Positions 3,536 through 34,632 of a stretch of DNA of 64,000 nt are shown here, piece after piece. Below the pieces are notes generated by a model. It saw only the letters and a program-made list of their open reading frames with translations. It had not been told where the DNA came from and did not search any database. Origin of the DNA: Nitrospiraceae bacterium (GTDB taxonomy: Bacteria; Nitrospirota; Thermodesulfovibrionia; UBA6902); NCBI GenBank assembly GCA_020356065.1, contig CP070632.1, positions 265,284 to 329,283 of the forward strand, read 5' to 3'. A program made the translations under genes and the position numbers. Each line of letters opens with the position of its first letter. The stretch's first letter is position 1.

Positions 3536-4284
3536 TAAGAAGATGGAGGAGTTGACGGCGGGTTTTCATCAGCAGGCGGAGGTTCCTTGTAATATAAAAA
3601 CCTTTTGCAGTAGTAGCAGGTGTAGGTTTTGCCTGTTTCCTTTATGTCATTGTACAGCTGCGGCGGGATATTTGTGTTGCATCCTAAACATATTTCATTC
3701 CTGACCTGGACCACAGCAAGTCCGCCGAGCCTGTCAAATTTTTTCATATACTGATCATAGAGTTCTTTATTTACCCTGGTAACAAAATCATTTCTTTTTG
3801 CCTTGTACATATCTATTTCTGCAGTGAGCCTGGTTTTTTCCTCTTGTATTAATTTTTCCTGCTTTTTAAAATCCTCTTCAGCCTTCCTGACCGTCTCCTC
3901 TTCTTTTTGTATCTGAGCGGTAAAAGCTTCAATCTCTTCCATTAAAGCAAGGATCTCGTCTTCAATCTTATAAATATTATTTTCGAACACCCCTATCTCC
4001 TTACGATGGGCTTCATATTCCTTGTTAGTTTTTATGTCACTGCTTCTGGCCTTTAGCTTGTCAATCTTGTCCTGAACCTCATCCAGCTCTAAATCTTTAT
4101 CGTGTTTCTTCCTGTTAAGAACTTCCGCCTTTTTCTTGATTGATTCAAATGACTTACGAGCTTCCCTGAGGGGAACTTCAAATTGAGATAACCTGCGGGG
4201 CAACACATCAATTTCATCAGCTATGGACAAAATAGCAGTATCAAGTTCCTGCAGTTCAATCAGAAGTTTCAGTTGTTCATCCAA
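3535..4284 (-). CDS. COG1579-type coiled-coil plus C4 zinc-ribbon protein with a Pro-rich tail. Its stop overlaps the rnhA start.
   Basis: 249 aa. Long heptad/coiled-coil region, then CLGCNTNI...CYYCKRFLY zinc ribbon. Its stop and the rnhA start fall at the same coordinate (3535), suggesting a conserved gene pair. Confidence 0.65.
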   Translation of the reverse strand: MDEQLKLLIELQELDTAILSIADEIDVLPRRLSQFEVPLREARKSFESIKKKAEVLNRKKHDKDLELDEVQDKIDKLKARSSDIKTNKEYEAHRKEIGVFENNIYKIEDEILALMEEIEAFTAQIQKEEETVRKAEEDFKKQEKLIQEEKTRLTAEIDMYKAKRNDFVTRVNKELYDQYMKKFDRLGGLAVVQVRNEICLGCNTNIPPQLYNDIKETGKTYTCYYCKRFLYYKEPPPADENPPSTPPSS

Positions 4285-4346
4285 GTTATAAGCAATCCTT
4301 TATCAACAATTCAGCAAGAACAGGCTGACAATATCCATACAGATGC

Positions 4347-4423
4347 TGGTGGGCCCACCAGGACTCGAACCTGGGACCAACCGGTTATGAGCCGGTGGCT
4401 CTAGCCAACTGAGCTATGGGCCC
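4347..4423 (-). tRNA. tRNA with CAU anticodon (Met, or Ile2 if lysidine-modified). CCA is encoded.
   Basis: The reverse complement reads GGGCCCATAGCTCAGTTGGCTAGAGC-ACCGG-CTCATAA-CCGGT-TGGTCCCAGGTTCGAGTCCTGGTGGGCCCACCA. It has a 7-bp acceptor stem, D-loop, CAT anticodon loop and T-arm GGTTCGAGTCC. Confidence 0.85.
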
Positions 4424-4573
4424 GAATCAGTTAATATCTGACTAGACATTCTATGATAAAACACTTAAAATTGCAAACCTTGAGCACTCTGTTATGCATG
4501 CAGCATGCATGCTTTTGGATGAATAATTAAATGACGGCCAGAGTTATTTTACAACAAGGATGAAATGAACATT

Positions 4574-7479: not shown

Positions 7480-7582
7480 TCAAACCTGATATAATGTTCT
7501 GAGTTAGAAATCCTGTATTGCCGAAAGCAATATATTTCAAAATTATCCGTGTAATATCGGAATTATATTTTACTCTTTTATA

Positions 7583-8356
7583 ATGGGAAAAATAACAGCA
7601 GTAGCCAATCAGAAGGGTGGTGTCGGAAAAACCACTACCGCAATCAATATAGCAGCTTCCCTTGCAGCTGCTGAAAAAAAGGTACTGCTCATCGATACCG
7701 ATCCCCAGGGCAATTCTACAAGCGGTCTTGGTCTGGATAAAAACTCCACGGACGGAAGCCTGTATGACCTGTATATAGAAAAAAAGAGACTGGATGATAT
7801 TATCCAGTCAACCAGCCTGGAAAATCTGAAAATAATACCATCTAATATTGAACTGATAGGAGCAGAACTGGAGCTTTCAACAAAAGATCTCAGGGAGACC
7901 ATTTTGAGAAACGCCCTCGATCCCATTAAGGGTCAATATCATTACATATTCATCGATTGCCCGCCCTCTCTCAGCCTCCTGACTCTGAATGCCCTTGTTG
8001 CAGCAGACAGCCTGCTTATTCCCATGCAATGCGAATATTATGCCCTGGAGGGAATCAGTATGCTGCTCCATACATATAACCTTATTAGAGAATCTTTCAA
8101 TCCTTCTCTGGAAATAGAAGGTATACTGCTAACCATGTTTGACGGAAGAAATACCTTGGCCAACCAGGTCACGGATGAACTAAAAAAACATTTCGGTGAC
8201 AAGGTGTACAGGACGGTCATTCCCAGAAATGTAACTCTCGCTGAAGCGCCAAGTCATGGGAAGCCTGTCATGCTTTATGATATTCGTTCAAAAGGTGCCC
8301 AGAGCTATATAGAACTTGCAAAGGAGATCATTGGCAATGAAACCAGCGCTTGGTAA
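7583..8356 (+). CDS. parA: Chromosome-partitioning ATPase ParA/Soj.
   Basis: 257 aa. Deviant Walker A KGGVGKTTT, DTDPQGN and ParA family signatures. Confidence 0.9.
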   Translation: MGKITAVANQKGGVGKTTTAINIAASLAAAEKKVLLIDTDPQGNSTSGLGLDKNSTDGSLYDLYIEKKRLDDIIQSTSLENLKIIPSNIELIGAELELSTKDLRETILRNALDPIKGQYHYIFIDCPPSLSLLTLNALVAADSLLIPMQCEYYALEGISMLLHTYNLIRESFNPSLEIEGILLTMFDGRNTLANQVTDELKKHFGDKVYRTVIPRNVTLAEAPSHGKPVMLYDIRSKGAQSYIELAKEIIGNETSAW

Positions 8357-10914: not shown

Positions 10915-11286
10915 TTATGGAGATAAAACCCTATGTATGATCCTGCTCTCATATTCAGGAAACAGAGCTAAATGCAGAGGCCTGTGTCTTATGTTGTCGA
11001 GACATATTATCTTATAATTAAGTTCACGCAGCTTCCTTAATCTCTCTCTGTCGTTATCAATTATCTGTATAAGAGAGCTCAGATTCATAATCTCTTTTCT
11101 CAACTCAAGCTCCGGAGGTATATAACCGGAGTTTTTCAGTATTCTGTATGAGGCCCTCAGATCATCAGGTATCCAGGACTCATCTTCAAGTTTCAGGGGT
11201 TTGCCTTTGCCCCGAAGATTATCAAGCTCGCCCTTTTCCATGGCCTCACTGATTTTTCTTTCAACTATTGTGCTGAATATGTTCAA
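10915..11286 (-). CDS. DUF1992 (DnaJ-C28-like) domain protein.
   Basis: 123 aa. ...EAMEKGELDNLRGKGKPL...IPPELELRKE..., matching the DUF1992 pattern as recalled. Confidence 0.55.
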   Translation of the reverse strand: MNIFSTIVERKISEAMEKGELDNLRGKGKPLKLEDESWIPDDLRASYRILKNSGYIPPELELRKEIMNLSSLIQIIDNDRERLRKLRELNYKIICLDNIRHRPLHLALFPEYESRIIHRVLSP

Positions 11287-11330: not shown

Positions 11331-11561
11331 TTAATTATACGTATGTTTGATTATTACAACATCCTGCGCCTGAAGCCCACGGCTGCCCTGCACTACAGTA
11401 AATGTTACTGAATCGCCCTCTCTTATTGTACAATCACTTTCATGACACAGTACAGAACTGTAATGTACGTAAAGATCATCTTTACCTTTGCGGGCTATTA
11501 ACCCGTAGCCTTCAATTTCATCATACCACTTAATTACCCCTATTTCACGACCTATTATCAC
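11331..11561 (-). CDS. Cold-shock domain protein with a probable GTG start.
   Basis: GVIKWYDEIEGYGLI...DLYVHYSSV... matches the CspA RNP1/RNP2 pattern. The called ATG start adds about 27 non-homologous residues. An in-frame GTG lies 8 nt after an AGGA. Confidence 0.6.
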   Translation of the reverse strand: MIIGREIGVIKWYDEIEGYGLIARKGKDDLYVHYSSVLCHESDCTIREGDSVTFTVVQGSRGLQAQDVVIIKHTYN

Positions 11562-12004
11562 CAGATATTTCCTGTATATGCATACATTCCTGTTTGAATA
11601 AACATATATGACACGTTCCCTTTTATTAATAATATTCGGCATTTACCCTCTTATACTTTAAATATTTACGTAATTCATTTTACCGTTACACTTTATCATA
11701 CATGGTGAGTTCTGTTCCCATGGTTGCATTGCAAGGAGTCGAGGATTCAAGGGGTCCATGGATCAAGTTTTAAGTGATGGAATAATTTTTTTATAATTTC
11801 ACTCATATCCTTAGAATACTTTGTTTCCTATCTTAAATAACTTTTAAGATCTTTGAATATTGTTAACATTAAATGAGACATTCGTGGAGTAAATATGCAT
11901 TCATAATCCATGGCTTAATCGTGATATACATATTAAACATTTCTGGAAAGATATAAAGAAAGGCATTTCCCCTAAACAGTTCAGAAACTACATATTTTAA
12001 ACAC

Positions 12005-17488: not shown

Positions 17489-18870
17489 CCTGTAAAAAGA
17501 AGAAGGCTTCGGTTATTCTTTTAAAACCAAGAAAACCTTAAAAGAAAGGAAGACCGAAGCCCTATGAGAAAGATACCACCAAGTGAGAAGAATCGCAAGC
17601 AGTTAGAGGAGTTATTAAGCGGGGGAATAGAGGGAGAGAATTTATTGACGGCAGTCATTGAAAAAGGGATGCAAATCATCATGCAGGAGCTGCTGGAGTC
17701 AGAGGCCACGGAATTTCTTCAGCGAGGGCATTATGAGCGGAGGGGATCTGAGGAATTTAGGGGATACCGCAATGGATACGAGCAGCGGAAGATCAGGACG
17801 GCTGAGGGGAAGGTCCCGATAGAGCTGCCGCAGATACGAGAGAGCGTGGAGCCGTTTCGGTCAAAGTTAAAGGAGTTTTTTCGTGGGAATACAGAGTGTT
17901 TGGAGAAGTTGGCGGCAGAGATGTATGCCCGAGGGCTGTCGACGAGGGACATTGAGGATGCGATGATAGAGGCCACAGGAGATATGATTCTGTCAAAGAC
18001 GAGCGTATCGAGAGTGACGGATATCTTCTGGGAGGATTTCGAGCGATTTCAGCAGAGGGACCTGTCAGGGTATAGCGTTGAGTATCTGTTTCTGGATGGG
18101 GTATATGAGAGTGTGCGGAGGTTGGCGGGGATCAAAGAGGCGATACTGGTGGCCTGGGGGATACAGCGTGATGGCAGGAAGGTGTTACTGTCGCTGCGGT
18201 TGGGAAATAAGGAGAGTTATGACAGCTGGCTGGAGATGCTGCGGGACATGGTGAAGCGGGGATTGCGGATACCGGTGAGTATCACGAGTGATGGGGCCCC
18301 GGGAGCAATCAAGGCGATAGAGGCACTCTTTCCGCGATCATTGCGGATACGGTGCTGGGTGCACCGGATGAAGAACTTTTCATTAAAGGTGCCTCCCGTG
18401 ATGTGGCCTGAGCTGAAGGCTGAATTGTATCAGATCAGGGATGCATCAAGTTATGACCAGGGCAAAAAGATGGCCGAGAGTTTTATACAGAGATACAAGA
18501 GGACATATCCGACACTGGTCAGTGCCGTCAGTGATGATCTTGAGGCCTTACTGTCACATCTGAGGTTTCCTATTCGACACAGAAAGAGTGTACGGACGAC
18601 GAATCTGATCGAGCGGAGTTTTGTGGAGGAGAGAAGAAGGACGAAGGTGATTCCGGGATTCTGGACAGAACAGAGTTGTTTAAAGCTGGTGTTCTCGATC
18701 CTGATAAGAGCATCAAAACGATGGAATCAGATAACGATGCAGGATATGGAGTTGAAGCAAATCGATTCCTTGAGAAAAGAACTGAAAATTGATATCGAGA
18801 AAAGTGCATCATTAACTTGTAAAAAGAAAAAGGCGGTGAATGCTTGATACCGAGCCTTCACTTTTACAGG
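17489..18870 (+). mobile_element. IS256-family insertion sequence, about 1.38 kb.
   Basis: Imperfect terminal inverted repeats: CCTGTAAAAAGAAGAAGGCTTCGGT (17489-17513) and ACCGAGCCTTCACTTTTACAGG (18849-18870). They bracket a single IS256-type transposase ORF. The size fits the family. Confidence 0.7.
17564..18847 (+). CDS. IS256-family (mutator-type) transposase.
   Basis: 427 aa. ...ATEFLQRGHYER..., YLFLDGVY..., ITSDGAPG...CWVHRMKN conserved DDE blocks of IS256 transposases. Confidence 0.85.
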   Translation: MRKIPPSEKNRKQLEELLSGGIEGENLLTAVIEKGMQIIMQELLESEATEFLQRGHYERRGSEEFRGYRNGYEQRKIRTAEGKVPIELPQIRESVEPFRSKLKEFFRGNTECLEKLAAEMYARGLSTRDIEDAMIEATGDMILSKTSVSRVTDIFWEDFERFQQRDLSGYSVEYLFLDGVYESVRRLAGIKEAILVAWGIQRDGRKVLLSLRLGNKESYDSWLEMLRDMVKRGLRIPVSITSDGAPGAIKAIEALFPRSLRIRCWVHRMKNFSLKVPPVMWPELKAELYQIRDASSYDQGKKMAESFIQRYKRTYPTLVSAVSDDLEALLSHLRFPIRHRKSVRTTNLIERSFVEERRRTKVIPGFWTEQSCLKLVFSILIRASKRWNQITMQDMELKQIDSLRKELKIDIEKSASLTCKKKKAVNA

Positions 18871-19152
18871 GAATTCGGGACTTGACCAAATTATGAATGA
18901 TAAAGTATAAAAATAAAATTGAGAACTTTATCTAAAAGTCTTCTATCCAAGACTGGTCTTAATCACTGAACATATCAATCGATAATCAATACATAAACAT
19001 CATGTATTGTGCATTTTTTCTTGCAATTTGCAGTCGAAGAGATATACTTTTCATTAACAAATCTTATCAAGCTGAGAAGATCCTTAGAGTCTGGTAATAC
19101 AGGAGTTAAGATGCCTAATTATGAACAAATTTCTAATATTTGAGGAGGCGTT

Positions 19153-19863
19153 ATGAAAGTGGAAGAATTAGAAAAATTCGGAGCAAAGCTCGAAATGCCA
19201 AAGGAATCTATGAAAGAACAATCCAGAATAATGCTGAGAGCTTTACGCAGGAAATTCGGTTTATTGGGAATGCCAGCAGTTTTTAAAGATATATACTTTT
19301 TTCAAAGAAAATTGCGAAAAGAACATCCTGAAACACAAAAAAAAGCTGCTGCTATGGGCGATATTATGGAAAAAGAACTCTTCATATTTTCCGGGTTGTA
19401 TCTGGCATTGGCAAAGAGACTTGGAAGGGGAAATGCCTATGAGTTTTTCAAAACTGAAGTTATAAACGAAATTGCCAAAACATCCATGGCATCACTTTAT
19501 CAGCTTGATGATTTAAAAAAGTGCGAAGGCGATGTTTTTGAGAATTTCAAAAAAATGAATATTGCAATATTCGAAAGAACAACAAAAGACGGTACATGGC
19601 TTATGGATGGCTATGAAAACAAGAAGGACAAGCTCACTATTAAAGTTACTACCTGCACCAATGTTGAGTTGTTTAATGAACTGAATGTCCCTGAACTTGG
19701 AAAATTCGGCTGCGATCACGATTTGGTGGGATATCCTCTTATTGAAAAAGATGTGGATTGTGATTTCCGCAGGTTAAGTACAATAGCAAGCGGCGATGAT
19801 TATTGTCTCTTTGAGTTTTACCGTCGCGGGACAGCACCGGATAATGCGCATCTGAATATTTAA
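19153..19863 (+). CDS. Hypothetical Cys-motif protein, possibly ATC-hydrolase-like.
   Basis: 236 aa. C-terminal TCTNVELF...GCDHD...CDFRR cysteine pattern. The family assignment is from memory only. Confidence 0.35.
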   Translation: MKVEELEKFGAKLEMPKESMKEQSRIMLRALRRKFGLLGMPAVFKDIYFFQRKLRKEHPETQKKAAAMGDIMEKELFIFSGLYLALAKRLGRGNAYEFFKTEVINEIAKTSMASLYQLDDLKKCEGDVFENFKKMNIAIFERTTKDGTWLMDGYENKKDKLTIKVTTCTNVELFNELNVPELGKFGCDHDLVGYPLIEKDVDCDFRRLSTIASGDDYCLFEFYRRGTAPDNAHLNI

Positions 19864-20798: not shown

Positions 20799-21325
20799 AA
20801 AAGAGAAGAATTATTATCACAATATCCGCATTCATTATCTTACTTATAGTCTTTACAGTATTTGCTGATACATTTCTCCACAATGTTTTTAGCGGACGAG
20901 TTGATTTTCCTAAAGAACATCTAGGTGAAAACTTAGTAATGGAAGATGGCCAGGAATTTATTGTATTTCGCCGGTTGAAAATTAATAATCAAAATAGTGG
21001 TAATGATAGTGCCGCAGTTTCTAAGGTTAGGTTTAAATTTAAAAGTTTCAATTCAGGAACAAATAAAAATCTCTCAATGATACCGGCTCCTTTTCTCATA
21101 GGAATGAAAGAATTTCATGAAAAATACTGGACGTTTAATGAGAATTCCGGCTACTTTCAGGGAATATATCAGTGGGAATCAAATGAATCAGCTGAAAATT
21201 ACCCAGACTCCTTTATTTATAAGTTAATGACAAAGCGAGCTGATCCGGGAACTTTATCATACGAGATCATACCAGATACTAATATATCTGAATATATTGA
21301 GAAACTTACATCAGATACAGCATGA
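20795..21325 (+). CDS. Hypothetical membrane-anchored protein.
   Basis: 176 aa. One N-terminal TM helix and a Ser/Asn-rich extracytoplasmic domain. The start overlaps the methyltransferase stop (ATGA). Confidence 0.4.
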   Translation: MKKRRIIITISAFIILLIVFTVFADTFLHNVFSGRVDFPKEHLGENLVMEDGQEFIVFRRLKINNQNSGNDSAAVSKVRFKFKSFNSGTNKNLSMIPAPFLIGMKEFHEKYWTFNENSGYFQGIYQWESNESAENYPDSFIYKLMTKRADPGTLSYEIIPDTNISEYIEKLTSDTA

Positions 21326-21523
21326 TCACGTCTGCAGCGATGCGTTATGGGGAATTTATCCTATCTCAGCAACCAATATACTCACGATATATATCGGAAA
21401 TCTTCAATATCTTTGGCTCACCAAATACTTCATATGATAATCATATAGCGGGCACCTCCCTGAGCATAACGTTTTGCGGTATGCTCAAGATAAGGAACTA
21501 AATCTTAATGTAGGAGGTGCCAT

Positions 21524-22543
21524 ATGGGATTATACGCAGGATTTGATCTCCATTCAAGCAATACATATGTGGGGATTATCGATGGGGAAGGCAAGAGGGT
21601 ATGGAAAAGGAAGCTCCGGAACGATCCAGACCTAATCTCAGAGTCACTCAGACAGTACAAGAAAGATATTGTGGGGATAGTGGTGGAGTCCACTTATAAC
21701 TGGTATTGGTTGGTAGATCGTATGATGACGGAGGGTTACGCGATGCATTTAGCTAATCCATCTAGGATACAACAGTATTCAGGACTAAAACATGGAGATG
21801 ACGAACATGATGCATTCTGGCTTGCCGAGATGCTGAGGTTAAAGATATTGCCTGAGGGATATATCTACCCAAAGGAGCAAAGGCCTTTGCGTGACCTGTT
21901 AAGGAAACGGGGACATCTGGTAAAGCTACGGACATCTCTGATAGTGAGTCTTCAAAGTATTCTCGCCAGGAATGTTGGTGCAAAGATGAATGCAAACCAT
22001 ATGAAGGCATTGAAAAAAGACCATGTAACGCCGCTGTTGGCAGGCAATGATGATCTTACGCTTGCTGGGAGGGTAAGCAAGGAAGCAATTGACTCTCTCA
22101 CTAAGCAGATTAAGTCAATCGAAGTGGTTGTAGAAAGAAAGATGCATTTGAAGAAGCCTTACGATATTCTGTTAAGTTTGCCTGGTGTAGGAAGGGTTTT
22201 GGGATTAACCATCATGATGGAGACGGGCTCGATTGATCGTTTTCCTGAGGTAGGCAATTATGTATCGTATTGCAGGAAGGTACCTGCTGTAAGATTCAGC
22301 AATGACAAGAAGAAAGGGACAAGCAACAGGAAGAACGGCAATAAGTATCTTTCATGGGCATACGCTGAAGCGGCAGAGCATGCACGACGACTTGATCCTG
22401 ATGCGAGGGACTATTATGTTCGGAAGCGGAAAAAGACAAATGACCCAATCGCACACAGTGCGCTTGCACACAAGCTGGCGAGGGCTTCATATTATATGAT
22501 GAGGGACGGGGTTCCGTTCAAACCTGAGAAGGCATTTGCATAA
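21524..22543 (+). mobile_element. IS110-family element. Only the transposase ORF is given. The family lacks terminal IRs, so the ends are not delimited and probably lie within about 21330-22750.
   Basis: 339 aa. N-terminal DEDD RuvC-like domain (GFDLHSSNTYVGI...VVESTYNWYW) and C-terminal LPGVGRVLGLTIMMETGSIDRF HhH region, diagnostic of IS110/IS492 transposases. Confidence 0.8.
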
Positions 22544-23025: not shown

Positions 23026-24044
23026 TGTGTGATTCACATAGATCGTTTCAATTTTCTCAGCCTTAAATCCATGTTGTAATTTTGTTCTTGGAACCTCTCA
23101 TTTAAGGGATCATACATATCGTCAACATCTTCGCCATATGGAATCACATCCTTCAACTCACAAACTACATCCATAGGAGATTTACCCTTCAAGGAACCAT
23201 GAGGACGAAGTCGGTTGTAGTAAAATTGCCATTCCTCAAGGAGATTCGATATTTCTGGATTTTTCATATCGATGGTAGAGTAAAATTCGTAGAGAACTGT
23301 TTTCTGGGCTCGCTCGACCTTGCCATTTAAGTGAGGAGATGCTGGTTTTATTGGCCTGAACTTTATCCCCCAATCCATAAATCGCTTCTGGACCTTCATG
23401 GCAAAAAACTCTGTGCCACGATCAGTCTGAATACGCTGAATAGGAAATGGCATCATTTCACATGCCTGCTCTATAAACTCCAAAGTGTTGGATGCGTTGC
23501 GACGATTGTAAAGAGCCAAAATCATGAACCTACTACAGTCATCAATAGCTGTATACTGGTAAAGTCCTGGGCCGATCTTGCAAGTGTCCATCTGGACTCT
23601 GTCGCCAGGTACAGGGCGAGAATACCGATTGTAATCTTTTTTCCTGCGTGGTTTTTGGAGCTGTTTGCATCCGTTAACGGTAAGAACCTTATGGATAGTC
23701 GCAAGGGATAAATTGAAGCTATGGAGCCGTTTTAGTTCGCTCTGGATTCTTCGAGCACCGAGCTTGCGATTATTACGAAGTGTGAGTATCCATTCAGTTT
23801 CTTTTTGTCCGACTTTAGCGGCTGGAGACTTTTTAGGTGCCCTGCTCTGGCTCTGCAGGCCCTTAATACTATCTTTCTGATAGCGCCTCCACCATTTGCG
23901 AAGCGTCGGACGGGAAACGCCACATCTTCGACAAACGAAGCCAGCGTCACCTGTTTCTTCATAAAGTTTTATCCATGTAAAACGCGCCCTGATTGCTTTC
24001 TCCATAGACGATATTATAATTGAAATGATGTTTATGAATCACAC
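23026..24044 (-). mobile_element. IS481-family insertion sequence, about 1.02 kb.
   Basis: Terminal inverted repeats TGTGTGATTCACA (23026-23038) and TGAATCACACA (24034-24044) with TGT...ACA ends. They enclose one DDE transposase ORF. Confidence 0.7.
23034..24005 (-). CDS. IS481-family DDE transposase (HTH plus rve integrase core).
   Basis: 323 aa. N-terminal HTH (RPTLRKWWRRY), then DTCKIG...TAIDDCSRF...QTDRGTEF...NGKVER DDE triad blocks. Confidence 0.85.
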   Translation of the reverse strand: MEKAIRARFTWIKLYEETGDAGFVCRRCGVSRPTLRKWWRRYQKDSIKGLQSQSRAPKKSPAAKVGQKETEWILTLRNNRKLGARRIQSELKRLHSFNLSLATIHKVLTVNGCKQLQKPRRKKDYNRYSRPVPGDRVQMDTCKIGPGLYQYTAIDDCSRFMILALYNRRNASNTLEFIEQACEMMPFPIQRIQTDRGTEFFAMKVQKRFMDWGIKFRPIKPASPHLNGKVERAQKTVLYEFYSTIDMKNPEISNLLEEWQFYYNRLRPHGSLKGKSPMDVVCELKDVIPYGEDVDDMYDPLNERFQEQNYNMDLRLRKLKRSM

Positions 24045-24074
24045 ATGTAGTGTTACTTTTTATTTTATTTAAAG

Positions 24075-24554
24075 CTAATGAATCAGCATATTGAGAAATT
24101 TGTCAGAGACTACACAATCTGATCTTTCCTCTTTAAGCACTGCTTTTTTGAAATCACAGAGATTGCATGCCATGAACTTTGGGATCAATGACCTTTTGAT
24201 CCTTCCACCACATAACGTGCCTGGCACAACCCAGCAAGCTCTTCCTCCGTTTTCCCCTCCATGGATACCATTGAGTTTTGTTTCCTTAAAGACTGGGCAG
24301 ACGACTATATGATTTCCTTGCTCACCACCGGCATGTTTATCACACTTCTGAAACTCCCAGCAATTTACTTTCATTATCTGGGTACTCTTTCGTCTCTGAG
24401 CTATTATAAGTGACCACTGCCTTATGTCATCAAGGAAAGGTTTTACATTTTGACCCATTTCCTTGATCATTAACTCTGACCATGAATCCTTATCATAGTT
24501 GCCGATCTCTATAAAATATGCTCCACACCCAGCCATTTCCTTAAATATTCCCAT
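24075..24554 (-). CDS. Stand-alone Cys-rich 'two Cys-Trp' domain protein.
   Basis: 159 aa. The C-terminal half reads CWEFQKC...CP...CWVVPGTLCGG...CNLCDF, which aligns residue-for-residue with the C-terminus of the histidine kinase at 4574-4800. Confidence 0.6.
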   Translation of the reverse strand: MGIFKEMAGCGAYFIEIGNYDKDSWSELMIKEMGQNVKPFLDDIRQWSLIIAQRRKSTQIMKVNCWEFQKCDKHAGGEQGNHIVVCPVFKETKLNGIHGGENGGRACWVVPGTLCGGRIKRSLIPKFMACNLCDFKKAVLKEERSDCVVSDKFLNMLIH

Positions 24555-24628
24555 GACTAGAAATCACCTTGTGATATTAAAAAATATGTTAAGCCAAATT
24601 AAATGATATGAAAAATCCACTGATACAT

Positions 24629-24958
24629 TTAACCAGCAACAATTGCGTGATCTTCCTCTAATAATTCATGAATTTCGTGTAATGGATATGTTTCTAAAAT
24701 CCAATCATTACCAAGATCTTTTGCAAGCAGGTTTATAGCATCAGGCTCATTCGTATCAATCATGATTATGAGCTTTTGATGACAGCTGTCCATTGGTTCA
24801 TAACATTTAATCATTCTGCATTTCTTATGAAGAAGATCATCCTTACTTACGTTTTCCCATTCTTCCAAATCTTCTATTTTTGCCATATGTGGAATTTTCT
24901 TTTTGGTATTGCAAATTGACAAGTACATCATTTGTCTTCCCCTCCTTTTTGCCGACAT
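24629..24958 (-). CDS. Small hypothetical protein. The start is either here or at MAKIEDLEE, 24886.
   Basis: 85-109 aa. Has KCRMIKCYEPMDSCH cysteines. Lies directly upstream of the two-CW gene on the same strand. Confidence 0.4.
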   Translation of the reverse strand: MSAKRRGRQMMYLSICNTKKKIPHMAKIEDLEEWENVSKDDLLHKKCRMIKCYEPMDSCHQKLIIMIDTNEPDAINLLAKDLGNDWILETYPLHEIHELLEEDHAIVAG

Positions 24959-25294
24959 TAAAAAAGCCGGGCATACCGTTGGTTAAACCTTCGGCAGCTC
25001 GGCTATCTTCAACTTCGGAGACCCGCCACTTTCCGCCCCCTTCTCACGGAGGGTTTGGCTTTGTCGGGTATATATACTTTTATTTACTTCTTTAATAAAT
25101 AATTGTCAATTTAATACTATTTATGACTTATTATTAATTCTTATATAATTGTGATTAAACAGTATGACTATAAAGCACTGAATCATGGTATCAATTATTT
25201 AATAAAACAACAGTCCTTACTTTCTTCATATTTTAAAAGTTCCTTATTGAGAATACGTATCAATTCTACTTTTGAAACCAGCTTTCTCTTCATT

Positions 25295-25456
25295 TCAATT
25301 TACACCTCTTTGATATTTGTCATTTTTAATTTTCCTTATGGCACCAGCTTTCCCTTGTTTACAGACAATATCCTCCTCCAATGCCTCAGCTTTGCAAAGA
25401 TATTTATCGTTATGCATACAGTTGCCATTTGAACATTTAGGATATTTCATTTTCAT
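25295..25456 (-). CDS. Unannotated 53-aa Cys-rich mini-protein (MKMKYPKCSNGNCMHNDKYLCKAEALEEDIVCKQGKAGAIRKIKNDKYQRGVN).
   Basis: Hand-translated from the minus strand. It falls below the 60-aa ORF-track cutoff. It shares a KC-x4/5-C-x1/2-NDK-x3-C motif with the adjacent 88-aa protein. Confidence 0.4.
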   Translation of the reverse strand: MKMKYPKCSNGNCMHNDKYLCKAEALEEDIVCKQGKAGAIRKIKNDKYQRGVN

Positions 25457-25525
25457 TTCGTTAATACCGCTTTAATCTAAAAAATTACAATTCCATCATG
25501 TTATCTGCAGTATAAATACAATTAA

Positions 25526-25792
25526 CTAAATGTTATAACGCTCATAAATTTCATATCTCACAGGGCAATTACATATTATTTGATTATCTGCAAAAGGGAT
25601 ATTGTAAATACAAGAGATGTCATGATTGAAATTAACAAAGACCATGCCATCACCAATCTTACTTTCAACTGGACACATAGCTAACCTGTCAGAACACCTG
25701 GGGGTATCTTTATCATTTAAACAAGATAAATTGGCGTGACATTTTGTTGCTCTATCAATAATTATATTACTTATATCAATTTTCACTGGCAT
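25526..25792 (-). CDS. 88-aa Cys-rich small protein, paralogous to the 53-aa ORF.
   Basis: TKCHANLSCLNDKDTPRC...MCP...C..C.C: 7 Cys. Sits in an AT-rich islet, divergent from the LuxR-type regulator. Confidence 0.45.
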   Translation of the reverse strand: MPVKIDISNIIIDRATKCHANLSCLNDKDTPRCSDRLAMCPVESKIGDGMVFVNFNHDISCIYNIPFADNQIICNCPVRYEIYERYNI

Positions 25793-25854
25793 GTACCTTC
25801 ATGACTAAATAATATAAGTACTTTTTGATAAAACAAGTAGGCTTACCGATTAGT

Positions 25855-25886
25855 TAACAAAAAGTGTTGTAAGAAACACTTTTAAC
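25855..25886. promoter_or_regulatory. Candidate operator: 9-bp perfect inverted repeat AAAAGTGTT-N7-AACACTTTT in the divergent promoter region.
   Basis: Lies between the start of the Cys-rich operon (25792) and the LuxR-type gene (26039). A second dyad ATTGCC-N11-GGCAAT sits at 25971-25993. Confidence 0.35.
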
Positions 25887-26038
25887 TGCCTACAGACTTA
25901 TCTTGAAAATATTTTTGTTTTAATTTACCATGTTGATATATAATATACAGTACTATAATTTAACCTATATATTGCCTATAAAATATTGGCAATATAATTC
26001 CGCTAAACAGAAAATCATTGTAAGGCAGACCTATCCCC

Positions 26039-26986
26039 ATGAAATATAAGAACATATCAGATAAAAGCAGGACATCTCTTAATAAAGAAATAAACAGGTT
26101 AAAAAAACGTATTTTAGCGTTAAATGATATTGAACGAGAAAAGAAAGAGATTGAATGTTTATTGAGAGAGCGAAGTAAGGAACTAAATTGCTTGTATGGA
26201 TTGTCAGAATTAATAGAGCGATATGACCCTTCAATTGATAAAATTTTAAAGGGATTAACTCATCTCATACCCGTGTCGTGGCAATATCCTGAAATTACAC
26301 GAGTAAGAATATTATTTTATGAATCGGAGTTTAGAAGTAAGAACTTCAGAGAGTCACAATGGAGACAGGATACTGATATTAAAGTAGCGGGTCAGATAAT
26401 TGGGAAAATCGAGGTCTACTATATTAAAAAAATGGCTGAAAATTACGAAGGTCCATTTTTAAAAGAAGAAAGGATACTTATTGATCATCTATCTTACAGG
26501 ATTAGTCGCCTTACCGAACGTATCCATGCAAAGAAACAACTTCACGTAGAGCAATTAACACTAAAAAATATGAATATAACACTTCGTGAAGTTCTATCAA
26601 AAGTCCAAATTGAAAAAAAAGAAATAGGATATTCAATACATACAAATTGCGAAAAAATAATACTGCCAATTATTCATGCATTAGAAGCTGACGCAAACTT
26701 TAAACAAAAAAAATATATTTCTCTACTTAAATCCAATCTTAATGATATTATTTCTCCTTTCATAAATCAATTGTCAAGAGATTTTATGAGATTAACTCCA
26801 TCAGAAATTCAAATTTGTAATATGATTAAAAACGGTCTATCTACAAAAGAGATTGCAAATTTACGCGGCTTATCAGATTCAACTATACACAGACACCGTG
26901 AAAATATTAGGAAGAAACTGAATCTAATCAATAAGGATATAAATTTAATTACATACCTAAACACCTACATGGAAACTGCCCCATAG
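26039..26986 (+). CDS. LuxR-family transcriptional regulator with an uncharacterised N-terminal sensory domain.
   Basis: 315 aa. C-terminal GerE/LuxR HTH (LTPSEIQICNMIKNGLSTKEIANLRGLSDSTIHRHRENIRKKL). The N-terminal 245 aa includes a coiled coil and has no recognisable domain. Confidence 0.7.
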   Translation: MKYKNISDKSRTSLNKEINRLKKRILALNDIEREKKEIECLLRERSKELNCLYGLSELIERYDPSIDKILKGLTHLIPVSWQYPEITRVRILFYESEFRSKNFRESQWRQDTDIKVAGQIIGKIEVYYIKKMAENYEGPFLKEERILIDHLSYRISRLTERIHAKKQLHVEQLTLKNMNITLREVLSKVQIEKKEIGYSIHTNCEKIILPIIHALEADANFKQKKYISLLKSNLNDIISPFINQLSRDFMRLTPSEIQICNMIKNGLSTKEIANLRGLSDSTIHRHRENIRKKLNLINKDINLITYLNTYMETAP

Positions 26987-27340
26987 TAAATCAGGATAGA
27001 AAAAATTAATTATAATATCCAATTGATATCTAAGGACTCTTTTTATCCATAAGAAATTATTGATAATAGTCTGAAATCTTCGCAATCCAGGTTAAATCTA
27101 CATTATAGACAACTTCAACAAAGCGTTAATATCCATACAGACTCCATTTCATTGATAATACAGATGAAGGTTCAAAAATAATGGGAAAATCAGGTCTGAA
27201 CTTGTGTGAAGTATCAAAATCTGAAGATTACATTATATAATCAACGATTCACTTAGATAATGAAATTACTGGTAACAGGTTTAAATCAATAAAAAGATAG
27301 AGCCATTGCTGACTCTACCTTATTAAGAATCCCCCCCTGA

Positions 27341-27826
27341 CAAATAAAAACTTATTTCTTATATTTCTTTCTGAATCTCCTAAAACCTAATGTTGCTCCA
27401 CCTACTATAAAAAGAGTCGAGCTTATTGGTTCAGGTACAACAGGTGATAAGAGCATTGATTTCATAAAGGATCTCAAGGCTGTACAGAAAGACATCAGGC
27501 TCAAGCTCTATCGGGATATACCCCTGTACAAACTGGCTATTTTCGGCGATTATCTCAGTGTAAGGCACTATCACCCTGGCATGGATGTAGGGAATAAGCC
27601 GGAATATGTGTTTGAGCATACCTCGGATCATGGTGGTCTGTACAGCACATTCTATCAGTATTTCTTATCACGCTGGAATGATCCCAATATTTTCGAATAT
27701 GACCTGGAAACGGACGAGATCATTTACAGGGAAAGAACCGGCAAAGAGCTCAGCAGGGAGACATTGAAAATCCCTCTGGTCCATCCTGAGCAACAGAGGG
27801 AGTTCGCCGGCGGCGAGACGTTATGA
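27341..27826 (+). pseudogene. Start-codon-less 161-codon open frame, a probable 3' remnant of a disrupted gene.
   Basis: The frame is open from the stop at 27338 to 27826. It encodes ...IGSGTTGDKSIDFIKDLKAVQKDIRLKLYRDIPLYKLAIFGDYLSVRHYHPGMDVGNKPEYVFEHTSDHGGLYSTFYQYFLSRWNDP.... The only ATG is late, at 27581. It lies at the boundary of the AT-rich islet. Confidence 0.4.
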
Positions 27827-27837
27827 CTTGAGAGACT

Positions 27838-33660: not shown

Positions 33661-34632
33661 ATGCAAAGGATGATGTTCCCTACCGAATCTGATATATTAA
33701 TCGTATTGCCGCTTCTTCTCATCTGCATTTGTTATAAAATGAGAGAGCCCGAGCACTCTACGATAATGTTTAAAAACGAAGCTGAAAATTTTTACAATTA
33801 TCTCAGAATAAACGGATTATCCAGGTCGGCCCGAAAATTCAGGACTCTGGTATACCGCTTCTACAGGGACAATGCCCGTGAAAATTTACCCTGGCGCAAC
33901 ACTGATGATCCTTATCACATACTCGTTTCGGAAATCATGCTGCAGCAGACGCAAATTGAAAGGGTCATGAACAAATATCCTTTATTTTTATCAAAATTCC
34001 CTGACTTCCGATCACTTGCCCGCGCAAGGCTTCGCTCCCTGTATAAAGTCTGGCAGGGCATGGGATATAACCGCCGTGCACTTGCCTTAAAAAACATTGC
34101 CCGAGTGGTTGTAACATCCCCCTATGAAGGAAATCTGCCTTCGGATGTGGATGAGCTCATGGCTATGCCCTTTATCGGTCAGTCAACAGCTGGAGCAGTT
34201 GCTGCATTTGCATTTCACAAGCCTTCAATATTTATTGAAACGAATATACGCAGGGTATTTATTCATTTTTTCTTCAGGGAACAGGGACGGGTAGCGGACC
34301 GGCACATTTTGCCATTGATAGAAAAAACGCTCGACAGAAAAGATCCACGAAACTGGTACTACGCACTCATGGATTACGGGGCGGCACTGAGATATCTTAA
34401 AGACAATCCAAATTTAAAAAGCACCCTATATAAAAAACAGAGTACTTTTGCAGGCTCAAAACGTCAGATGAGGGGGAAGATCCTGCGTCTCATCAGTGAA
34501 AAGCAGAGTATACCTTTGAAGGATTTACAAGGACAATTGAATATGTCCTGTGATAAGATTGAAAAAATTATCGATGAGCTCTGTGATGAAGGCTTTATTA
34601 AAAAGAAGGGATGTTATATCAGAATGGGTTAG
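33661..34632 (+). CDS. HhH-GPD superfamily DNA glycosylase with no Fe-S loop. The true start is probably an internal Met (MREPE/MFKNE).
   Basis: PWRNTDDPYHILVSEIMLQQTQ...MAMPFIGQSTAGAV helix-hairpin-helix/Gly-rich loop. No Cys cluster follows the HhH. IETNIRRV occupies the position of the usual VDTN/VDGN catalytic Asp motif. Confidence 0.6.
   Translation: MQRMMFPTESDILIVLPLLLICICYKMREPEHSTIMFKNEAENFYNYLRINGLSRSARKFRTLVYRFYRDNARENLPWRNTDDPYHILVSEIMLQQTQIERVMNKYPLFLSKFPDFRSLARARLRSLYKVWQGMGYNRRALALKNIARVVVTSPYEGNLPSDVDELMAMPFIGQSTAGAVAAFAFHKPSIFIETNIRRVFIHFFFREQGRVADRHILPLIEKTLDRKDPRNWYYALMDYGAALRYLKDNPNLKSTLYKKQSTFAGSKRQMRGKILRLISEKQSIPLKDLQGQLNMSCDKIEKIIDELCDEGFIKKKGCYIRMG

Follow-up and report, generated by a model that had tools for sequence, protein, structure and literature searches.

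An AT-rich cassette of Nitrospirota with a predicted c-di-GMP riboswitch and a predicted GAF-LuxR regulator among genes for small cysteine-rich proteins

Among described systems, the closest to the RNA element reported here are the c-di-GMP-I (GEMM-I) riboswitches, such as Vc2 of Vibrio cholerae (RF01051, clan CL00126), which are two-armed aptamers with a GNRA loop on the first arm that lie in 5' untranslated regions, act through terminator-type expression platforms and precede genes for motility, pili or exported proteins. In these RNAs, G20 and C92 recognise the two guanines of cyclic di-GMP (c-di-GMP), and an A replaces G20 in the riboswitches for cyclic GMP-AMP (c-GAMP) (PMC6140456). On the protein side, the nearest relatives are the two-CW proteins (NF045718), most of which stand alone at 100-130 amino acids (aa) among mixed neighbours, and the sensor-LuxR/GerE regulators, among them the LOV-HTH protein EL222, GAF- and PAS-LuxR proteins and the c-di-GMP-linked VpsT and CsgD, in which an N-terminal sensor fold and a helical linker precede a C-terminal GerE helix-turn-helix (HTH). 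Here we describe an AT-rich cassette of ~3 kb, spanning 24.07-27.02 kb of a 64-kb stretch of Nitrospiraceae bacterium DNA (3.17-Mb contig CP070632.1 of a metagenome-assembled genome; this whole stretch is called the window), in which an RNA and a regulator of these classes stand among genes for small cysteine-rich proteins, which we call p88, p53, p100 and p159 after their lengths. The RNA and regulator can be assigned to known classes; the roles of p88, p100 and the two-CW domain of p159 are uncharacterised. We consider it probable that the islet is a conserved two-input signalling cassette, in which a GAF-LuxR regulator acts on a divergent promoter region and a c-di-GMP ON-riboswitch gates p100 and p159.

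The RNA was found by an Rfam scan of the whole window, which returned two matches, one of them a tRNA and the other a GEMM-I-clan aptamer located in sense orientation between the p53 open reading frame (ORF) and the p100 gene, 57 nt upstream of the p100 start codon (Table 1). It has the two-arm architecture of the Vc2-type RNAs with GUGA as the GNRA loop of its first arm, shares with them the 5' untranslated location and the terminator-type expression platform, and carries the same nucleotides at the equivalents of G20, A47 and C92, the second of which we take, from the Vc2 structures, to be a ligand-contact position. It differs from them in that its 21-46 pair is C-G where theirs is G-C, in that its sequence is nearest to the RF03167 seed and its binding is predicted, and in that the genes behind it encode uncharacterised cysteine-rich cytoplasmic proteins instead of exported, pilus or motility proteins. 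Among related loci, which are labelled L with a number throughout, all that could be read except L011 have this aptamer ahead of the orthologous genes (L002, L004, L005, L007, L008, L088, L160, L012, L113, L184 and L083), with scores of 59-72 bits for RF03167, and some of these copies also pass RF01051 (48-50 bits against a threshold of 35). Among the matches listed in a pattern scan, at least 120 more metagenome contigs (L091-L210) carry this aptamer subtype, with very diverse genes downstream; about half of the first ORFs behind these aptamers have hydrophobic N-termini, and 110 of 120 class members have a T-run 15-70 nt downstream. When 110 copies were aligned, 92.7% of the cells were paired and double changes occurred in 13 of 21 pairs, figures that are favoured by the fitting of the alignment to the model; none of 500 shuffles reached as high a value, and slid controls were 29-58% paired.

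The nucleotides of the pocket bear on the ligand. The G20-equivalent is G in 97 of the 110 copies and A in 12, and the equivalents of A47 and C92 are A and C in all of them. By locus, G is found at the first of these positions in the window, L002, L005, L008, L088 and L160, and A only in L012, L113 and L184, which share it with the c-GAMP (GEMM-Ib) riboswitches of Geobacter, RNAs of the same fold. The window, having G, lacks the change that marks the c-GAMP class, and we predict from its pocket that its ligand is c-di-GMP; for the three A20 copies, c-GAMP or a dual specificity is possible. It is unlikely, in our view, that the window RNA instead senses 3'3'-cGAMP or the ligand of the Rfam 'GGC' variant and places the cassette in another second-messenger regulon. 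Clan competition does select the c-di-GMP-I-GGC model (RF03167) rather than RF01051, the 21-46 pair beside the pocket is flipped to C-G in 104 of the 110 class members and G-C in 2, and A20 of the three distant loci matches c-GAMP riboswitches (PMC6140456), but the window and its close relatives show the c-di-GMP configuration at all three positions, related copies pass RF01051, and a PilZ gene lies within the operon of L113. In addition, the RF03167 consensus has G at model position 37, the A47-equivalent, where the window and 110 of 110 related aptamers have A, so that the diagnostic A47-to-G change occurs in none of them; here we assume, on our own reading of the model consensus, that 'GGC' denotes positions 20, 47 and 92. 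Because the diagnostic G of the variant is absent, the 'GGC' label of the window aptamer reflects clan competition on overall sequence and not the defining change. The literature that names the variant, its defining paper aside, gave no information on the ligand.

Directly downstream of the aptamer, and overlapping it, lies an intrinsic terminator with a minimum-free-energy fold of -22 kcal/mol (z = -4.5); when the whole 121-nt leader is folded to minimum free energy, the terminator takes the place of aptamer helix P2. Since one and the same stretch serves as 5' arm of the terminator and as 3' strand of P2/P1, the ligand-stabilised aptamer and the terminator are mutually exclusive, and an ON switch is predicted. 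Without ligand, the 3' strand of the aptamer would pair downstream and the terminator would form; with c-di-GMP bound, that strand would be held in the aptamer, transcription would continue and p100 and p159 would be made. The hairpin is kept in 12 related leaders, where a double change is seen in 3 of 15 pairs and the free 3' arm shows wobble and a few compensatory changes. A candidate promoter read from the sequence would start transcription just ahead of the aptamer; it was not reported by an automatic promoter scan because its -10 element ends in A. L005 does not share the site; there, the p88 gene stops 56 nt short of the aptamer, with no obvious terminator between them. In L005 the riboswitch may work as an internal attenuator of a p88-p100-p159 transcript, and p100 and p159 would then need both inputs.

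A variation on this leader was observed in L011 (positions 7498-7630 of that locus; CP070788.1, Nitrospiraceae bin1476), where the p100/p159 leader keeps the 5' end CCCCGACA, the 3' strand AGCCGGGCGACCGAUG and the terminator. Its aptamer core is replaced by ~65 nt that gave no Rfam match even at E <= 1, so that the leader may be what is left of a riboswitch, or its expression platform may now serve another sensor.

Since the aptamer and terminator lie between p53 and p100, the run of four minus-strand genes that the first-pass annotation of this DNA had taken for one operon divides into two units, namely p88, with or without p53, and riboswitch-p100-p159. That annotation, made from the letters and the ORF list of the window, had also judged the function not deducible, whereas a GEMM-I riboswitch ahead of p100 and p159 would put both genes in the c-di-GMP regulon. 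The ORFs that it listed on the minus strand (88, 53 and 159 aa, and one at 24629-24958) and the GerE/LuxR ORF on the plus strand (26039-26986) do exist, including the 53-aa ORF, and the genes co-occur in relatives rather than being scattered; its uncharacterised module with a dedicated regulator survives as a conserved cassette, with the genes parsed differently.

One such change concerns the first gene behind the riboswitch. The protein given as 109 aa with a CxxxC motif is most likely 100 aa long, as we read its start at Met10 of the longer ORF from the AGGAGG ~8 nt before ATGATG at 24931, from homologues of 100 or 85 aa and from the position of the first nine codons inside the terminator; its motif is C-x4-C. 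The p100 family is rare, with five database homologues and orthologues in L002, L005, L011, L088 and L160, in each case with the p159 gene directly downstream, and it has no Pfam, NCBIfam or PDB sequence match. A likeness to DUF3303 or GYD-type alpha/beta-barrel proteins is a guess on our part.

The second gene of the unit begins 74 bp past p100 with the ribosome-binding site AAGGTGA. Residues 64-141 of p159 match the NCBIfam two_CW_domain profile NF045718 over positions 2-79 of 80 (E 2e-24, 85.6 bits against a cutoff of 35). About 20 full-length homologues with 47-96% identity share its family-specific N-domain, and C65, W66, C71, C86, C107, W108, C115, C130 and C133 are invariant in the family, giving seven cysteines and two CW dipeptides. 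Thus, p159 has both CW dipeptides and all the conserved cysteines of the two-CW proteins, and differs from most of them in the added three-helix N-domain, seen in these ~20 sequences only, and in its control by a riboswitch. In the AlphaFold2 (AF2) model, the three helices of the N-domain reach a predicted local distance difference test score (pLDDT) of 79-93 while the two-CW part stays below 50, and a profile search of PDB sequences with the p159 alignment gave nothing significant. The gene shows a ratio of nonsynonymous to synonymous divergence (dN/dS) of 0.20 against L005.

The two-CW domain has a wide distribution, with anaerobic Nitrospirota, Desulfobacterota, Myxococcota and Actinomycetota among its carriers. 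Across 77 genome loci, most of the proteins that contain it are stand-alone and 100-130 aa long, some of them in tandem; the larger ones join it to PP2C (three cases), STAS, cNMP-binding domains with or without a Ser/Thr kinase, and NIT-HAMP-MCP. These fusions to signalling outputs point to a signalling input or interaction domain, and by analogy p159 may act as a small sensor or adaptor that would be made only when c-di-GMP is high. Our literature search for 'two-CW domain' found no paper.

Upstream, the other unit is governed, as we propose, by the LuxR-type protein. Its HTH is assigned by PF00196 (40.6 bits against 23.5, residues 251-299) and by PDB matches of the LuxR type, and the AF2 model, which is confident (pLDDT 86), has an alpha/beta domain at residues 66-140 between a coiled coil and long helices. 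On this model the sensor domain has a GAF fold, and the family counts more than 1000 homologues, so that the N-terminal domain, previously described as matching nothing recognised, can be placed. No receiver (REC) or Response_reg domain was matched, NCBIfam matches were confined to the HTH, Pfam gave no autoinducer-binding domain (PF03472), and SdiA and RhlR align over the HTH only; with neither a receiver nor an acyl-homoserine lactone domain, the protein is neither a NarL/FixJ response regulator nor a quorum-sensing LuxR. It shares with the sensor-LuxR/GerE regulators the C-terminal GerE HTH, the N-terminal sensor fold and the helical linker, and differs from them in that its compact GAF domain follows a 60-residue coiled coil and in its lack of receiver and acyl-homoserine lactone domains.

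The inverted repeats that had been noticed in the 246-bp region between the LuxR and p88 genes are present, as a perfect 9-nt pair (25860-25883) and a 13-nt pair (25968-25996). The latter contains a palindrome that takes the form ATTGCCTAT-N5-ATWGGYAAT across relatives, lies in the same place in L005-7 and L088-89 and is single-copy in the 64 kb, while the divergent region as a whole has 82% mean column identity across three lineages. The palindrome is a candidate operator of a dimeric GerE-type regulator. We propose that the cytoplasmic coiled coil-GAF-LuxR protein would bind it as a dimer and control p88 and its own gene in response to a small ligand.

At E < 1e-3, 257 cluster representatives out of 1.84 billion fall into the p88 family, whose members are 78-88 aa long, and a 40-member alignment shows five invariant and one near-invariant cysteine. 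It has no Pfam, NCBIfam or PDB match, and the 40 members were scanned without a match to an iron-sulfur (Fe-S) or zinc-finger family; a look-up of one member led only to contigs of 2 kb or less. Orthologues with 72-75% identity are found in L005-7 and L088, the operon of L113 that holds the two-CW gene also encodes a relative with 31% identity, and no relative was found near 75 stand-alone two-CW genome loci (0 of 75). For p53, we reject the earlier view that it is a paralog of p88, as no paralogy is detectable (BLASTP E = 7). A homologous 49-aa ORF is present in L088 only (84% identity over 43 aa) and absent from L005-7, and the in-frame dN/dS of 0.24 rests on just 14 differences. Behind p53, at about 25190-25291 on the minus strand, a 32-codon ORF (MKRKLVSKVELIRILNKELLKYEESKDCCFIK) is probably not a gene, as the homologous stretch in L088 is partly deleted.

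At least three further Nitrospirota lineages carry the cassette as a block, and its conservation spans 50-85% protein identity within this one phylum. The full set, with LuxR divergent from p88 followed by aptamer, p100 and p159, is present in the window, in L088 (LuxR 85% identical) and in L005-7 (75%). LuxR, p100 and p159 are kept on the complete Nitrospiraceae chromosome of L011 (CP070788), aptamer, p100 and p159 only in L002-4 and L160, and aptamer and p159 only in L008, where the aptamer directly precedes p159. Other contexts of the LuxR family (L090, L214 and L215) have unrelated neighbours without p88 and p159, so the gene combination in the cassette is, by these comparisons, a specific one. 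Distant p159 homologues (35-36% identity) occur in L012, L113 and L184. In L113 the order on one strand is a PAS-PAS-LuxR gene, an aptamer (A20), a 68-aa ORF, a two-CW protein, a p88-family protein and a PilZ-domain protein (4170-4520, minus strand; PF07238, E 4e-08), the last in the riboswitch-preceded operon. PilZ is a c-di-GMP receptor fold, and this gene is an independent link of the operon to c-di-GMP. The cyclic-dinucleotide riboswitch and a PilZ gene in the same operon of this one lineage suggest that p100, p159 and the p88 family belong to the c-di-GMP regulon.

Two observations on relatives stand beside these. In L088, a weak GEMM-like match lies between p100 and p159 (4496-4569, minus strand; 37 bits with our own model, below the Rfam thresholds), and two further GEMM-I aptamers ~300 nt apart (11090-11176 and 11481-11566, minus strand) precede another gene 6 kb away. 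Synonymous divergence from both L005 and L088 is much lower in the LuxR/p88 half of the cassette (25526-26986; p88 dS 0.16-0.30) than in the p100/p159 half (24075-24931; above 1.2 or saturated), which could be due to extreme AT codon bias or to a more recent exchange of the LuxR/p88 half.

Several points weigh against the two-input, c-di-GMP-dependent switch that we favour. LuxR and p88 are absent from L002, L008 and L160, so units 1 (LuxR and p88) and 2 (riboswitch-p100-p159) can function apart, and L011, with LuxR, p100, p159 and terminator but no recognisable aptamer, indicates that c-di-GMP control is not obligatory. The best-scoring Rfam model is the GGC variant (67.9 bits), the aptamer class of the window carries a flipped 21-46 pair that may bear on specificity, and thermodynamic folds are what the ON logic is drawn from. 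Among the same-strand neighbours of 75 stand-alone two-CW genes no partner family recurs, the best being NUDIX with 5 of 123 ORFs. With the pLDDT of the two-CW part below 50, binding of a metal or cofactor by its seven-cysteine module is a guess from the cysteine pattern. More generally, every function given here to a part of the cassette, from ligand to biochemical role, is one that we infer. A further-reaching version, namely a previously undescribed two-input switch for interacting cysteine-rich p88, p100 and p159 that together make a sensor complex, metal- or Fe-S-based, for redox state or small molecules and link cyclic-dinucleotide signalling to partner-switching or phosphorylation, is possible but doubtful.

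The cysteines also invite a simpler interpretation as a metal- or redox-handling module, with metallochaperones, metal buffers or Fe-S carriers under a LuxR protein that senses metal or redox state, which we regard as improbable. The conserved cysteine arrays of p88 (6), p159 (7) and p53 (4) and the absence of other recognisable functions in family searches are in its favour, as is a MerR regulator with an ABC/FtsX cluster bearing a YHS domain a few genes downstream in L005, but L088, L011 and the window do not share these neighbours, and the cassette contains neither a transporter nor a metal-type regulator. Its dedicated RNA sensor is of a cyclic-dinucleotide class and not of a metal class, the two-CW domain is fused to signalling outputs and not to metal-trafficking domains, and a metal as cofactor would be equally compatible with the two-input switch. 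Of the first-pass description as small, putatively metal- or redox-binding cysteine-rich proteins, the conserved cysteines hold up while metal handling finds no specific support. An assignment of the small ORFs to housekeeping ferredoxin or zinc-finger families, which would have told against that description, did not emerge from our searches of curated Fe-S and zinc-finger families, in which hits were sub-threshold only (Zn_ribbon_Com E 0.05, DUF1540 E 0.12, EGF E 0.43).

As for the islet as a whole, its AT-richness, which had been noted by eye, is real on calculation: guanine-plus-cytosine (GC) content is 0.322 over 24050-27340 and 0.428 in the rest of the window, the lowest of any 3.3-kb stretch in the 64 kb and ~4 standard deviations below the mean, and GC at third codon positions, which is 0.41-0.60 for flanking genes, falls to 0.25-0.30 in those for LuxR, p88, p53 and p100. 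The cassette is more AT-rich than its flanks in every genome examined (L005 0.347 against 0.471; L011 0.386 against 0.519), so low GC is a property of the cassette itself. Two more short low-GC patches (0.33-0.35) at 18800-19600 and 20800-21400, upstream of insertion sequence (IS) elements, make the cassette the largest AT-rich stretch nearby and not the sole one. Homology to related cassettes begins at 24064-24075 and stops at 27006-27022, and the flanks differ in each genome. On the left, an IS481 end had been placed at the border, and the right inverted repeat of that element indeed ends at 24045, next to a transposase gene at 23034-24005 on the minus strand (NF033577, 247 bits). On the right lies degraded DNA on both strands; the start-less remnant earlier drawn at 27341-27826 is in part a truncated plus-strand ORF up to 27826, but its 5' part (27352-27504) encodes a PEP-CTERM tail on the opposite, minus strand. 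The surroundings are rich in insertion sequences, with an IS110-family transposase (21524-22543, plus strand) and two 323-aa IS481-type ORFs (23034-24005, minus strand; 33661-34632, plus strand) within 13 kb; the two IS481-type copies have no detectable DNA identity (blastn gave the self-match only).

With such surroundings one may ask whether the islet came in recently as a mobile or selfish element (a defence system, toxin-antitoxin pair or phage remnant) whose small ORFs are accessory or not genes, which we consider highly improbable. It is AT-rich, its flanks hold IS481, IS110 and gene remnants and vary by genome, and p88 and p53 are unannotated in GenBank, but it is conserved at 50-85% protein identity across one phylum, p159 is under purifying selection (dN/dS 0.20) and the p88 family has its 257 representatives. 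By genomic-island criteria, the composition deviates and one flank is IS481, while no integrase, tRNA or direct repeats were found at the borders and the cassette has no plasmid or phage match; the deviant composition behind the earlier idea of horizontal acquisition stands, and a recent acquisition is not supported. As had been read from the sequence before, no enzyme, transporter or toxin family was matched among the cassette proteins, nor any defence or phage family, and PADLOC and PHROG families gave nothing beyond generic HTH similarity; on this and on the plasmid and phage searches, we reject a defence-system or phage origin.

Table 1. Coordinates of the cassette features and of its borders in the window
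Feature	Position	Strand	Details
IS481-family right terminal inverted repeat	24018..24045	.	left cassette boundary; 28-nt pair 23026-23053 / 24018-24045, 86% complementary
p159, 159 aa	24075..24554	-	UCH81267.1 (JSW20_01315, 'hypothetical'); helical N-domain 1-57 and two-CW domain 64-141
p100, 100 aa	24629..24931	-	UCH81268.1 in GenBank is an 85-aa form; HKKC-x4-CYE motif, C-terminal EEDHxIVAG
Intrinsic terminator (expression platform)	24959..25004	-	predicted hairpin GCCGAGCUGCCG...CGGUAUGCCCGGC, then U6; 5' arm doubles as 3' strand of aptamer P2/P1
GEMM-I (c-di-GMP-I clan) riboswitch aptamer	24989..25068	-	Rfam RF03167 67.9 bits (gathering 59), E 6e-14; G20-, A47- and C92-equivalents G, A and C
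Candidate sigma-70-type promoter of riboswitch unit	25081..25109	-	TTGACA, 17 nt, TAAATA; start would fall ~6 nt before the aptamer; read from sequence
p53, 53-aa ORF, 4 Cys	25295..25456	-	possible small lineage-restricted gene; unannotated in GenBank
p88, 88 aa	25526..25792	-	six-Cys family (C18, C24, C40, C61, C74-x-C76-P); divergent from LuxR gene; unannotated in GenBank
23-bp palindrome, candidate LuxR operator	25971..25993	.	ATTGCCTAT-N5-ATTGGCAAT; 46 bp upstream of LuxR start codon
LuxR one-component regulator	26039..26986	+	UCH81269.1; coiled coil 4-62, predicted GAF-fold sensor ~66-140, helical linker 142-242, GerE/LuxR HTH 251-299
PEP-CTERM sorting-domain tail remnant	27352..27504	-	TIGR02595 18.7 bits against cutoff 16; outside cassette

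Given that both RNA and regulator fall into established classes and that only a few uncultured lineages carry the cassette, we regard the finding as useful rather than surprising. A large class of environmental aptamers that keep the canonical pocket receives the label 'c-di-GMP-I-GGC', which is relevant to searches for altered ligand specificity that rely on that label. For the protein families, the tie to cyclic-dinucleotide signalling gives the two-CW and p88 families an experimental entry point, and, if the interpretation as a two-input switch is true, it would be the first functional handle on the two-CW domain and the six-cysteine p88 family.

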